DNA of 64,000 bases. Origin: an uncultured Candidatus Saccharibacteria bacterium. Lineage in GTDB: Bacteria > Patescibacteriota > Minisyncoccia > UBA6257 > JACOXY01. Both the position numbers and the translations under genes were made by a program. The stretch spans positions 2,602 to 66,601 of the forward strand of contig CAYHMC010000001.1 of the NCBI GenBank assembly GCA_964357615.1. The letters are read 5' to 3'. Shown here piece by piece: positions 60,336 to 64,000 of this stretch (position 1 is the stretch's first letter; each line of letters opens with the position of its first letter). The notes beneath the pieces were generated by a model that worked only from the letters and a program-made list of their open reading frames with translations, searched no databases and was not told where the DNA came from.

Positions 60336-60803
60336 TTATTTAGTTTTTTTGAGGCGTTTAGGGAGATGTTTATTTTGCCACTTGCGTTCGCGGTCGTGTT
60401 TGGCTATCCCTACGGCTTTTAGGGCATACATTGCAGCTCCAGGGGCATGAGTTGCAACATGTGCTACTGCAACTGCTTGGCCTGCAGAGCGTGCTGAAAA
60501 TCGTGCTGGGCTATCTTCTTTCGCACTTCGTGCCGCCGCATGAGCATCAAGTGAGGCTTTGCGGATTACTGCCATTTTAAAAATTCCAGTTCTTGCCCAT
60601 TTGCGACATGCTTTGATTGCTTCACGAGGGCGTTTATCTTTGGGAAATTCTTTTTCAAAATAGTGCAAAACATGCTCTGCGCAATCTGCAGCCCAAAGAG
60701 CCAATAACTTTTGGTCATCTTTAGTTACTTTTTTTAAATTGATTAAATTTAATTCAACTTCTTTTTTGAGGGTTATCAAAGAAATTGGACTAGAGTTTTG
60801 CAT
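60336..60803 (-). CDS. Hypothetical alpha-helical protein with an Ala-rich C-terminal half; locally GC-rich
   Basis: ...WAADCAEHVLHYF...AAARSAKEDSPARFSARSAGQAVAVAHVATHAPGAAMYALKAV. GC is ~50% across 60390-60590 against a ~30% background. Confidence 0.4.
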   Translation of the reverse strand: MQNSSPISLITLKKEVELNLINLKKVTKDDQKLLALWAADCAEHVLHYFEKEFPKDKRPREAIKACRKWARTGIFKMAVIRKASLDAHAAARSAKEDSPARFSARSAGQAVAVAHVATHAPGAAMYALKAVGIAKHDRERKWQNKHLPKRLKKTK

Positions 60804-60834
60804 TTACTAAGGTTAAAATATTATTTGTGGCCAA

Positions 60835-61455
60835 TCAATTTTTAATCTCAGAATTTTCTAAGAGGGAGAGCGCTAAGCTACTCATCGCTAAATATTGATA
60901 TGCTCTAATGGGATCATTAATTCTTGAGTCGGAAGTGTGACTTTTTTCATTTCTAAACATGTCAATAGCCATAGTAAGGAATTTGACTGCTTGATTAAAA
61001 TCTCCATCAACATTAGAAGCAGAAGCTCCTTTTATGTGTAACTTTCCTTTTCCAAAAGCTTCTGAACCTGTTTCATACCCAGTTAATTCTCGCAACTTAT
61101 CTCTTACGATTTTAAAACTTTTTTCTACGGCTTCGGCATATTCTTTCGACAAATATAAGGAGGTGCACTTTTCCTTTATCAGTGGGTGTATGTGAGAAAA
61201 TTCTTTTTCTATTGTTTTTGTATCTTTTTTTATGTGATTGGTTCTTTGTATATATTCATATAAACCTGCTTTCTTACGCCTTGTGAGAAACTTTTTTGCA
61301 CGCAACAATGCAACACCCATCTGCATTGAATTGAAATTGTTACCCCATGATTCCAGTTTTTTCAAAATTGCAGATGAGGTCCGCCAATTTCTAAAGAAGC
61401 CATCTTGCCAAAGAATCTTTAAACCATCGGATGAATTTTCTACAGATTTTTTCAT
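60835..61455 (-). CDS. HEPN-like protein (TIGR02391-type) with a C-terminal Rx4H motif
   Basis: ...NQAVKFLTMAIDMFRNEKSHTSDSRI... The R-x4-H sits in a helical C-terminal region. The gene overlaps the upstream gene by 1 nt. Confidence 0.5.
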   Translation of the reverse strand: MKKSVENSSDGLKILWQDGFFRNWRTSSAILKKLESWGNNFNSMQMGVALLRAKKFLTRRKKAGLYEYIQRTNHIKKDTKTIEKEFSHIHPLIKEKCTSLYLSKEYAEAVEKSFKIVRDKLRELTGYETGSEAFGKGKLHIKGASASNVDGDFNQAVKFLTMAIDMFRNEKSHTSDSRINDPIRAYQYLAMSSLALSLLENSEIKN

Positions 61456-61862
61456 TATTTACTTAATTCGTTTTCTACATATTGTTCTCCGGTAGATGTC
61501 AGAACCCATGACTTTTTTCCATTTTTCTTTTCTTCCGTTTCCATCATATGCGCATTTTTTATATTCATATTAACCTTATCGTTTATGTTGGCAGGTGCGG
61601 GATATTTAGCTGCAATAAAACCCTTCTTTAGATCATCTGCATTAACAGATTCAGTTTTTTCTACATGTTCTAAAAAGTAAGCAATTGCTACTGTTCGCTT
61701 TACGTCATCATTAATTTTTTTACCTAACAAAAATTCTTTAATAGACATTTTCTTTTTAGAATCTAAAACAATGCTGTCAAATGGTCCAGGTGATTTTATT
61801 TGTTCTAATTTATTAACTCTATCCTCCAAAGATGAGATTCTTTTTTCAATATGTTCATTCAT
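61455..61862 (-). CDS. Hypothetical protein (N-terminal coiled coil, possibly a C-terminal winged-helix-like region), translationally coupled to the HEPN-like gene
   Basis: 135 aa; ...GKKSWVLTSTGEQYVENEL at the C-terminus. It is 2 nt from the upstream gene. Confidence 0.4.
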   Translation of the reverse strand: MNEHIEKRISSLEDRVNKLEQIKSPGPFDSIVLDSKKKMSIKEFLLGKKINDDVKRTVAIAYFLEHVEKTESVNADDLKKGFIAAKYPAPANINDKVNMNIKNAHMMETEEKKNGKKSWVLTSTGEQYVENELSK

Positions 61863-61864
61863 AA

Positions 61865-62248
61865 TTATTTTTTAAAACGAGCGATTACTTGTGAAAGTTT
61901 ATAGTTTGGTAGATAGTAACGACTATTTTCTGACTTTATATCTTTTGACTCGAGAAGATTTTTTAGGGTTATTTTTACACTTCCCTCAGGGGCAATTTCC
62001 ATTTTTATTATTTCTGAAGGCGTTATTCTGTCTTCTGTGCCGAGTATTAGACTTCTAGCTTTTATTCCAGCTAGGACAAGAAGAATTCTTTCAGCGTTGG
62101 GAAGTTCCCAAAAGCCACCTGAAAACTCAAGAGTCTTCGATTCTTTATTTATTAATAGGTAAGGTTTTAAAAGATCAGCCAAGCCAACTTTGTCTATTGT
62201 TTGGGATTCGCTTACTAGTAAACTTGCCAATGGATCTTGATTGTTCAT
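61865..62248 (-). CDS. Hypothetical protein, first gene of a 3-gene coupled module
   Basis: 127 aa; no recognisable motif. Confidence 0.4.
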   Translation of the reverse strand: MNNQDPLASLLVSESQTIDKVGLADLLKPYLLINKESKTLEFSGGFWELPNAERILLVLAGIKARSLILGTEDRITPSEIIKMEIAPEGSVKITLKNLLESKDIKSENSRYYLPNYKLSQVIARFKK

Positions 62249-62547
62249 AATTGTAGTTTATAAATTACTTATAATAACTACTATTATAAACTATTCAAAT
62301 TAAAATGCAAGAGAAAGTGAAGTTTTTGGAGTATTATTTAGTCTATTATTTTAGTAATTTTTAAACTAGTCTAAATTTATCCTTATTTTAAAGCTTATTT
62401 CCTCATAATAAGAAAATATTTTTGTCGTGAATAAAAACTAATATATGCAATACATACTTATATTTATCCATATGAAAATGTTCCTTGCATTTTATACAGA
62501 ATAACTTGGTGATTGAAAGTTGTATTAAAAGGTGAAATAATTAAAAA

Positions 62548-62745
62548 ATGATAAGTTCCATTAGTCCAAAAGACGAATTAAATAAAAGTTTGGTGCGCAG
62601 AGACGACTCAGAAGAATTCAAAAAAGAAATGAAAAAACGAGAGAGTGATTATGCTAAGGACCTCGATTCTCTTAGTTTAGATTCCAAGAAAGACAAAAAA
62701 TTATCTGGACAAAAATCTCTAAAGCAAAAAAAAGACCGCAGATAA
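62548..62745 (+). CDS. Small charged ORF; probably the N-terminal exon-like part of the downstream DGQHR gene, separated by an apparent frameshift at an A8 tract
   Basis: ATG with an upstream AGGTGA. It ends 3 codons after an A8 run at 62726-62733. The +1 frame is open from 62723 to the window end. Confidence 0.35.
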   Translation: MISSISPKDELNKSLVRRDDSEEFKKEMKKRESDYAKDLDSLSLDSKKDKKLSGQKSLKQKKDRR

Positions 62746-64000
62746 AGCTTTTGAAGACAGGGTTTGGCTCTTGTTCGCCAATCTTGGAGCATCATTTTTA
62801 AACAAAGAAAATTCGAAATTATTCTTAGATATAAAAAAGACAAAACAAATTGATGTTATTGCTAAAATTGATGATCTAATTTTTGTTGTTGAGTGTAAAT
62901 ATTCAGAAAAAAAATCTAGATCACTAAGAAAAGATTTAGCTGAAACATCTAAATTAAGACGCCCAATAACAGAACTTTTTATAAATAATTGGCCAGAGGC
63001 AAGAGTAATTTTTGTTTATGCTCTTGAAAAAATAGAATTATCAGAATCTGATGAAAGAGACGCTTCAAATTACGGCATAAAGGTTTGGGATTCAAGCATA
63101 ATTTCTTATTTTGAAGATTTGGAAAATAGATTAGGTGACGCCGCAAAGTATCAAGTTTTTGCAGAATCACTTGAAGACGAGGAAATTGGTTCTTATTCGC
63201 CCAGAGTTCCTGCGATAAAGAGTGATTTTAACGGAGTTCCATTTTATTATTTTCTCGCACGACCAGAATCCTTGTTAAAAATAGCATATATTTTTCATAG
63301 GAAATTAAGAATTGGAGATCAGCACGAAAATCCATATCAAAGAATGGTAAACAAAAGAAGAATTGAGGACATTAGAAACTTCGTGGCTTCTAAGGGCTAT
63401 TTTTCAAATAATGTGATTGCAAACTTCAAACAATCACCAAAATTTAATAAAACTGATATTATAGAGGGTATTGAATACGGTGTTTTGACACTTCCAATTT
63501 TTTATCAGTCATTATGGATTATAGACGGACAGCATCGCTTATTTGGTTATTCAAATACAGGCGAAGCTAAAGACCACCTTATTCCAGTTCTTGCATTTCA
63601 GGGTCTTAATGAGGAAAAACAAGGCAAATTATTTATTGATATAAATTACAATCAAAAAAGTGTTGATCAAAATTTATTATGGGATTTGTATAGTGATATA
63701 TACTATCAAAGCAGAGATCCTGAAGAAAGACTGCTCTATGTGATAAGCATGATAGGTAAGAAACTAAATTCTAATAAAAGTTCTCCATTTTTTAACTACG
63801 TTTATATTCCAAGCATGAATGAATCTGGTCCGGGCGTAAATATTAAACTTACAACTTTTGGCGTACGGCTACAAAAGGGCAGTTTCTTAAAGGGGCAGAA
63901 AGATTTATTTAAAGAAAATAATGAGAATACTATAGATTTTGCTACAAAAAGAATAATCGAATATTTTAATATACTCAAAAGCTTTAACTCTAAAGATTGG
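62723..64000 (+). CDS. DGQHR-domain (DndB/DpdB-like, ParB-fold) protein with an N-terminal PD-(D/E)xK-like region. It is 3-prime partial (open to the window end) and is not in the supplied ORF track.
   Basis: 426 codons with no stop. The motif IIDGQHRLFGYS (63524-63538 encodes DGQHR) is followed by KLFIDINYNQK, a DndB-like FxDxN motif. Upstream, IDVIAKIDDLIFVVECKYSEK gives a D...ExK pattern. There is no in-frame ATG for ~200 codons, so the start is either TTG at ~62771 or an upstream ATG at 62548 reached via a frameshift. Confidence 0.6.

Follow-up and report, generated by a model that had tools for sequence, protein, structure and literature searches.

The window analyzed here, a 64,000-nt stretch of contig CAYHMC010000001.1 from an uncultured Candidatus Saccharibacteria bacterium, carries three small, closely packed genes (A, B, and C) on the minus strand between positions 60835 and 62248. 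We read this trio, with a probability of roughly 0.6, as one copy of a widespread and so far unannotated modular cassette resembling abortive-infection or toxin-antitoxin (TA) systems, in which the products of A and B would restrain or trigger a predicted RNase encoded by C. What is conserved is the A-B pair rather than all three genes. Judging from sequence, the third gene is a swappable effector, and at least six unrelated families are found downstream of A-B. The cassette is probably an undescribed anti-virus or TA system.

Gene A (62248..61865, minus) is an open reading frame (ORF) of 127 aa and the first constant component of the cassette; gene B (61862..61455, minus), an ORF of 135 aa, is the second constant component and the anchor of the family, and gene C (61455..60835, minus), an ORF of 206 aa, occupies the variable effector slot. 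The order is A-B-C, head to tail on a single strand, and in the ORF list the neighboring genes are all co-directional with the cassette. The TAA stop of A (61867-61865) is followed after 2 nt by the ATG of B, and the stop of B and the start of C share 1 nt, the junction reading TAATG. A first-pass annotation made from the DNA letters had proposed the same three ORFs, with the same coordinates and the same 2-nt gap between A and B, which we confirmed on the minus strand. Its 1-nt figure for the B/C junction is also correct, but the label "ATGA-type" is not, since TAATG contains no 4-nt ATGA overlap, and "obligatory co-translation" was an overstatement of a spacing that is merely compatible with translational coupling.

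Relatives of the pair are numerous. A profile of the B family retrieved 1815 representatives at 50% clustering from among 1.84 billion proteins (706 of them at E ≤ 1e-10) and 35 loci in species-representative genomes, mostly of Patescibacteria, with others in Gammaproteobacteria, Alphaproteobacteria, Dehalococcoidia (Chloroflexota), Nitrospirota, Planctomycetota, and archaea. JGI metagenomes contributed 335 relatives of B, for 80 of which the genomic context was taken, and after removal of duplicates the set comprised 109 non-redundant B loci. In 91 of them the gene immediately ahead of B is A, and 9 of the other 18 are at contig starts. The gap between A and B is −23 to +12 nt in 74 of these 91 loci, and that between B and the next gene is 19 nt or less in 77 of 87. 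In the compact genomes of organisms such as Patescibacteria, genes often lie only a short distance apart, and the neighbors here are all co-directional; three unrelated small genes could come to lie side by side in such a genome by chance. Such fortuitous adjacency is excluded by an A-B-X order that recurs with tiny gaps, between unrelated flanks, in about 100 loci from at least eight phyla, as well as by the A-B and B-Ymh fusions described below. The first-pass annotation had regarded the trio as the module and had considered the possibility that its members occur elsewhere only as scattered single genes. This is not what we saw, as the genes travel together in conserved neighborhoods. The A-B linkage stands; C as a fixed member does not, the third gene being interchangeable. 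A cultivated alphaproteobacterium, Afipia sp. Root123D2 (L044 4896-6021, NZ_LMDP01000001.1), encodes B and an HEPN-like/winged-helix effector directly after rpoD, with no detectable A gene at that locus, and is a possible experimental model.

The proteins were compared with Pfam (2025 copy), NCBIfam r20, PADLOC-DB v2.0.0, and PHROGs, and the structures of A and B were modeled with AlphaFold2 on family alignments. By its profile matches, C qualifies as a true member of the TIGR02391/Ymh family of HEPN domains: it matched TIGR02391 of NCBIfam at 2.8e-21 and 75.9 bits (curated cutoff 39.45; model positions 1-122 of 125) and PF09509 (Hypoth_Ymh) of Pfam at 9.3e-14 and 51.8 bits (cutoff 25; profile positions 2-118 of 119), the matches covering residues 88-201. 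Both curated cutoffs are passed, in agreement with the HEPN/TIGR02391 call made at first pass. The HEPN domain (residues 88-198; 60862..61194, minus) is predicted to act as a metal-independent endoRNase effector. The Rx4H motif that had been claimed for this protein is present, within AIDMFRNEKSHTSDSRI, and R168-N-E-K-S-H173 (60937..60954, minus) would be the catalytic motif; an alignment of 35 relatives shows no variation at N169, K171, or H173 and at least 90% conservation of R168. Ymh (PF09509) is listed among the HEPN families with a conserved Rx4-6H motif, its members being found on their own, behind N-terminal domains of various kinds, or in restriction-modification (R-M) operons (PMC3710099). 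Both the arginine and the histidine are essential to PrrC, RloC, and RNase L, and HEPN domains are established TA toxins (PMC3710099). C would adopt the HEPN fold, an all-alpha four-helix up-and-down bundle carrying the motif, by virtue of this family assignment (PMC3710099); a search of the PDB by sequence, with C and with the Ymh profile, gave no meaningful match and no solved relative. Homologs of C number 925, mostly from Patescibacteria. An identical protein is encoded on a 143,628-nt NCBI contig and on contigs from Hainich groundwater, the solo forms of Ymh of about 160 aa (alignment A4) are 55-69% identical to C, and the sole PHROG match is phrog_6297, whose function is unassigned (4e-5).

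The N-terminal domain of C (residues 1-85; 61201..61455, minus) is strongly basic (pI 10.3, net charge +11), carries a "GFF" motif (LWQDGFF...), and is predicted to be a winged-helix-like adaptor. These 85 residues are 48% identical to the N-terminus of L003_C, an effector with an unrelated C-terminal domain. In local hhalign comparisons the domain gave probabilities of 88.6% against cc-GFF, 82% against B2, and 75% against the 70-aa wHTH, all three of which are small coiled-coil or winged helix-turn-helix (wHTH) proteins of related cassettes. It would itself be a winged helix by way of B2, which hhalign links to B. Pfam had no match to a delivery or secretion domain in this N-terminal part, nor to an ATPase domain in C.

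We clustered the proteins encoded downstream of B; 76 of the 109 loci have an assessable effector. In 28 loci it combines a winged helix with a PLD-like domain bearing the motif HDR(F/Y)...GxSxKD (PLDc_2 7e-5 and MIT_C 2e-3, both under the Pfam cutoffs), and in 15 an RNxRxVxH-motif domain, HEPN-like by motif only, precedes a C-terminal winged helix. The GFF N-terminal domain of the window type is joined in 12 loci to a DUF4145-like domain (FLGDTSAHNP), with weak DUF4145 matches in 6 of the 12 (best E = 0.0074). A different N-terminal domain is coupled to Ymh in four loci (PF09509 1e-32), and the architecture of the window, GFF-wHTH plus Ymh, is a minority form (4/76). The other effectors (13 loci) include small proteins with two transmembrane segments (2-TM) and one 325-aa protein of unassigned function. 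Counted together, three HEPN-like classes account for 31 loci, and Ymh for 8. Closely related pairs can be followed by different effectors. The A and B proteins of the window are 89% and 73% identical to those of L052, and those of L071 and L075 are 94% and 93% identical to each other, yet in both comparisons the effector architectures differ; by these identities, effector exchange is recent relative to the divergence of A and B.

Additional small genes are found at some of these loci. A B-like paralog (coiled coil plus wHTH) is located between B and the effector in 18 loci, and another small wHTH protein elsewhere. Upstream of P0004, a full-length homolog of C (60% identical), the place of A and B is taken by two small proteins, both of which end in the same GFF-type domain that forms the N-terminus of C. 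In a proteobacterial cassette, a TIR-domain protein (L032 6723-7430; TIR_2 8.5e-15) follows the wHTH-HEPN-like effector, from which we draw that some cassettes may have two effectors. Encoded 530 nt downstream of a cassette with an HEPN-like effector (L003 5606-6157) is a protein of 183 aa whose two H-x-T-x motifs (LHITL...PHITV) are, as judged by eye, reminiscent of 2H phosphoesterases acting on 2',3'-cyclic phosphate RNA ends.

The same components are also found fused. P0293 joins A (residues 3-137, 2e-14) to B (165-266), P0335 joins the winged helix of B (6-109) to a Ymh domain (PF09509 2.4e-33), P0365 joins B to a GFF-type winged helix like that at the N-terminus of C (1e-4), and in P0256 an N-terminal domain with an RNAAEH motif is fused to B. 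These fusions suggest a physical linkage of A, B, and the effector.

A and B had no match in Pfam or NCBIfam (both at E ≤ 1), PADLOC, or PHROGs, and no meaningful match in the PDB by sequence. Word-based searches found 49 close homologs of A, whose mean column identity is 74% and in which a YxLPNYK motif is invariant, and 46 homologs of B, several of which share contigs with homologs of A. The AlphaFold2 model of A (pLDDT 88.9, pTM 0.81) has a beta-hairpin (residues 31-42) followed by a wHTH (51-126). In the model of B (pLDDT 81.8), a coiled-coil helix at the N-terminus (2-23) is connected by a disordered linker (25-37) to a wHTH (41-132), which bears out the coiled coil and winged helix guessed at first pass for the middle protein. 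Foldseek against the PDB returned generic wHTH regulators for A (E = 0.07-0.3) and, as best matches for B, MepR/MarR, SSV1 F-93, and PadR (E = 0.01-0.2); ArsR/CadC and the Crp/Fnr C-terminal domain are further structural neighbors. A and B are thus modeled as winged-helix proteins whose fold is clear and whose specific family is not, because these matches are all generic. The first-pass annotation was also right that there is no minimal nucleotidyltransferase partner, as A and B have neither a nucleotidyltransferase signature nor a corresponding Pfam match. Given that A is a winged-helix protein too and that the N-terminal domain of C would be another, the cassette is made up of three winged-helix modules and one predicted nuclease domain. 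One homolog of B (P0127) bears the JGI label "phage terminase small subunit," which no library backs; the coiled coil may be the cause of a spurious match behind this label.

The 5' region of the cassette is promoter-like (62249..62310, minus), with TTGCAT (62310-62305) and TATAAT (62288-62283) separated by a 16-nt spacer, and a consensus scan gave a second, weak promoter match at 62298-62271. The arrangement CTTGAC-N17-TATAAT is found 35-60 nt ahead of the ATG of A in most related loci. In the window, an 11-nt inverted repeat, ATAGTTTATAA / TTATAAACTAC (62294-62284 and 62263-62253, minus), with a 20-nt spacer, ends 4 nt before the ATG of A, and its left arm overlaps the −10 box. L052, the closest relative, has the repeat as well (p = 0.05 for the window and 0.01 for L052 against shuffles). 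Conserved palindromic operators upstream of A showed no enrichment in the family (9/82 loci at p ≤ 0.05 against shuffles), and because of this lack of enrichment the idea of an operator is only a hint. Between 60000 and 63200 we found no intrinsic terminator-like sites, and scans of the same interval with Rfam and for tRNAs and tandem repeats gave no RNA antitoxin-like element, no integration-site tRNA, and no notable repeat. No recognizable Shine-Dalgarno sequence (GGAGG-like) precedes the ATG of any of the genes A to D (62249-62265, 61863-61880, 61456-61475, and 60804-60830, minus; D is described below), and the 5' leader of A ends in (A)TAAAC(T)NNAATT-ATG, a motif common to many related loci of Patescibacteria.

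This layout would also suit a classical type II TA (addiction) module, with small winged-helix genes tightly coupled (gaps of +2 and −1 nt) to a downstream gene for an HEPN domain, a type of toxin known from such modules (PMC3710099), and with a promoter-like region of its own whose −10 box lies under an inverted repeat in both the window and L052. A, B, or both would then be a labile DNA-binding antitoxin that represses the operon and neutralizes C, and the module would stabilize a genomic island. The Ymh solos of about 160 aa, which sit behind a tightly coupled 67-aa gene, have the typical two-gene TA layout as well. We consider an addiction module distinctly less probable than the abortive-infection-like cassette. 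There are two conserved upstream proteins rather than one, the family as a whole shows no enrichment of palindromic operators, and the frequent embedding between hsdM and hsdS points to defense; moreover, 74% conservation of A next to toxins from at least six unrelated families is hard to square with cognate-specific antitoxins. The two explanations nevertheless overlap mechanistically, and most steps are common to both.

Every structural neighbor of the A and B models is a regulator that binds DNA (MarR/MepR, PadR, ArsR/CadC, and the Crp/Fnr C-terminal domain). Immediately ahead of the pair is a conserved promoter, and the same pair stands before many unrelated genes, as expected of a portable regulatory cassette. 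A and B could therefore be solely transcription factors that time the downstream defense gene, like the C-proteins of R-M systems or BrxR/CapW, with C as a self-contained abortive-infection protein. This possibility seems to us improbable, more so than the addiction module. A trans-acting repressor is not expected to have its winged helix fused to HEPN (P0335, P0256) or to an adaptor domain (P0365), as B does; the recognition-helix region of B is rich in Asn and Asp (P-x-N-I-N-D-K-V-N), the whole protein being only weakly basic (net +2); and the copies embedded in R-M operons are in the middle of the operon and not at its start.

The association with defense genes supports an abortive-infection-like cassette. 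In nine loci hsdS follows the cassette, and the order hsdM-cassette-hsdS was verified with Pfam in three: hsdM-A-B-(2-TM protein)-hsdS-Fic-hsdR in L016, hsdM-A-B-(N-terminal domain-Ymh)-hsdS in L091, and hsdM...A-B-wHTH-B2-effector-hsdS in L062. Tentatively, and with slightly less than even confidence, we propose that A-B is the core of an undescribed, widespread, enzyme-free sensor/regulator family for abortive-infection defense that appears as a guest in type I R-M operons. In L009 (242-6290, on a 38-kb contig), the A-B pair is located between a Bro-N gene and a set composed of a Dcm methylase, a 350-aa protein, and Vsr, and a REP_ORF2-G2P replication-initiator gene is found further along the same contig; this setting suggests that the pair is on a small mobile element. 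The Ymh solos, about 63% identical in alignment A4, have a conserved 67-aa gene ahead of them at a gap of 2-4 nt (L131 2793-3480; L134 2795-3519). One of these pairs ends an hsdR-hsdM/S type I R-M operon, and the other comes after an AAA_15/AAA_21 ATPase and a protein with a weak DUF4145 match. The 67-aa gene and the Ymh solo look like a separate two-gene module. A simple fusion of these two proteins as the origin of C finds no support, as the 67-aa protein is not detectably related to the N-terminal domain of C.

A fourth gene, D (60803..60336, minus), begins 31 nt after C and encodes a 155-aa Imm5_like protein (PF21805, 4e-43 in Pfam). The protein is very basic (pI 10.2, net +18), and the G+C content of the gene is about 0.41 against about 0.33 around it. 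A 52%-identical homolog is found 35 nt behind a GFF-wHTH/DUF4145-like effector in L077. With this strong family match and close spacing at two loci, the functional pair could be C-D, an HEPN toxin with its Imm5_like immunity protein as in polymorphic toxins, and A and B a separate adjacent module. We rate this as very unlikely. D is absent from the other loci (about 15) whose effectors share this N-terminus and from the P0004 locus; its strong positive charge, similar to that of the N-terminal domain of C, is not what one usually sees in a nuclease inhibitor; C gave no match to a domain for secretion or delivery; and the linkage of A, B, and the effector, in 91 of 109 loci and in fusions, is far stronger. 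D may instead be an optional fourth or accessory component of the cassette, a membership that is unproven because two occurrences are too few.

On the other side, the cassette is divergent from a gene for a 669-aa protein of the ParB superfamily with a DndB domain, a type associated with DNA sulfur modification (62771-64000, plus), which continues past the end of the window and is preceded at 25 nt by an ORF for a 65-aa lysine- and serine-rich protein (62548-62745, plus). No further dnd genes lie close by, and it may therefore be a DndB-type defense gene standing alone, forming a small defense island together with the cassette. A peptidase gene is a further neighbor in the window.

Several points weigh against an abortive-infection or TA-like cassette. 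Toxicity, RNase activity, complex formation, and the trigger are all inferred, whereas gene order and coupling, the domains of C, the modeled folds of A and B, the variety of effectors, the fusions, and the R-M embedding are shown by solid comparative genomics. The window copy is outside any R-M (hsd) operon, and no family of PADLOC-DB v2.0.0 matched A, B, C, or D at E ≤ 1, so that there is no independent defense annotation, although this same lack of a PADLOC model supports the novelty of the system. The fold matches of the A and B models (E ≥ 0.01) would fit plain transcription factors equally well. The HEPN labels of two effector classes derive from motifs and sub-threshold DUF4145 matches, and they stay motif-based because hhalign gave no signal between the HEPN-like classes or between them and Ymh; the profile of the DUF4145-like effectors likewise had no meaningful match in the PDB by sequence. 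IMG/VR viral contigs, GenBank phages, and PLSDB plasmids yielded no relatives of A or B, and the mobility of the cassette is deduced solely from its varied contexts. A phage- or plasmid-borne origin is unsupported, because B was not found in any of these three collections.

If the trio is indeed an abortive-infection cassette, it could work as follows. A, B, and C, being tightly spaced, would be cotranscribed from their own promoter-like region. B would dimerize through its coiled coil, bind A, and, as the fusions suggest, dock onto the effector, and this docking would keep the HEPN domain inactive, most simply by blocking the HEPN-HEPN dimerization that builds the composite Rx4H site. A cue linked to the invader would then free C. 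The cue might be a nucleic acid or protein recognized by the winged helices, or the decay of A and B once the host is shut off, or, for the copies embedded in R-M operons, the inactivation of the type I R-M complex. Freed HEPN domains would pair and form the composite Rx4H site as in the HEPN RNases that have been studied. Guided by its basic N-terminal domain, C would cut cellular or viral RNA in a metal-independent way, presumably leaving 2',3'-cyclic phosphate ends as known for the family. Translation would stop and the cell would become dormant or die, that is, the infection would be abortive. D may serve as an optional extra safeguard.

A cassette of this kind would be of interest for defense in the Candidate Phyla Radiation (CPR), whose genomes are small; we found almost no literature on the immune systems of Patescibacteria. 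It is common in CPR bacteria and is also present in cultivable Proteobacteria such as the Afipia strain mentioned above, which offers an experimentally tractable entry point. The control logic would be unusual, with two winged-helix proteins of about 130 aa sensing the cue and controlling at least six unrelated toxic effectors, and the adaptor-like winged helix shared by effectors and partner proteins suggests a simple recognition rule, possibly one that can be re-engineered. Repeated insertion between hsdM and hsdS carries the PrrC paradigm, in which an R-M system keeps an RNase latent, over to a new and much larger group of genes. If our interpretation is true, this would be a second-line defense in the sense of PrrC, with winged-helix adaptors replacing the ATPase, and among the first multigene defense systems characterized chiefly from CPR bacteria. 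A and B are, in addition, two sizeable families that can be defined from the present alignments for Pfam, NCBIfam, and PADLOC. Our literature search found no paper describing either family, and among the literature on TIGR02391, PF09509, Hypoth_Ymh, HEPN in Patescibacteria, and Imm5 with HEPN, only Anantharaman et al. 2013 was relevant.

Among known systems, the Ymh HEPN family itself is the nearest: C is a full-length member with the Rx4H motif, and relatives, in keeping with the family description, appear as stand-alone proteins, next to different N-terminal domains, and within R-M operons. The GFF domain at the N-terminus of C, however, is not among the listed fusions (pMORC, AbiJ-NTD1/2, AbiTii), and conserved A-B partner genes are not mentioned there (PMC3710099). 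The HEPN anticodon nuclease gene prrC is embedded in a type Ic R-M operon, EcoprrI (PMC3710099). Like PrrC and RloC, C is predicted to be a latent HEPN RNase, and related cassettes, though not the window copy, which is outside an hsd operon, sit between hsdM and hsdS, a placement also described for prrC and other R-M-linked HEPN genes (PMC3710099). In contrast to PrrC and RloC, C has no ABC-ATPase domain and its regulation would depend on two separate winged-helix proteins, in a cassette whose slot can also take PLD-like and membrane proteins.

HEPN-MNT pairs, such as DUF86 with a minimal nucleotidyltransferase, share with the cassette an Rx4-6H HEPN toxin in a tightly coupled small operon, but the cassette has no nucleotidyltransferase, and membership is excluded because A and B have no nucleotidyltransferase match and fold, in the models, as winged helices. 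In AbiE-type (AbiEi/AbiEii) and other type II/IV TA systems, an upstream winged-helix protein and a downstream toxin are linked to abortive infection, and autoregulation is expected. The cassette differs in that its toxin is a predicted HEPN RNase and not a nucleotidyltransferase and in having two upstream proteins, and Pfam gave no match of A or B to AbiEi. The Imm5_like gene immediately downstream of C recalls polymorphic toxin/Imm5 pairs, from which C departs in lacking a match to an N-terminal secretion or delivery domain.

Defense systems with a constant sensor and exchangeable effectors resemble the cassette in combining one conserved core with many alternative toxic effectors. The adaptor logic of the "effector-associated domain," reportedly set out by Kaur et al. 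in 2020, resembles it in the GFF-wHTH adaptor-like domain found on both effectors and small partner proteins, the idea of a homotypic adaptor being an analogy. Unlike constant-sensor systems, the A-B core has no NTPase, cyclase, or other enzyme and is composed of two winged-helix proteins of about 130 aa. What is already known, then, is the effector family and the logic of a latent HEPN toxin, often linked to R-M; what is new is the enzyme-free core of two winged-helix proteins with a swappable effector, and the A and B families, for which there is no existing model.

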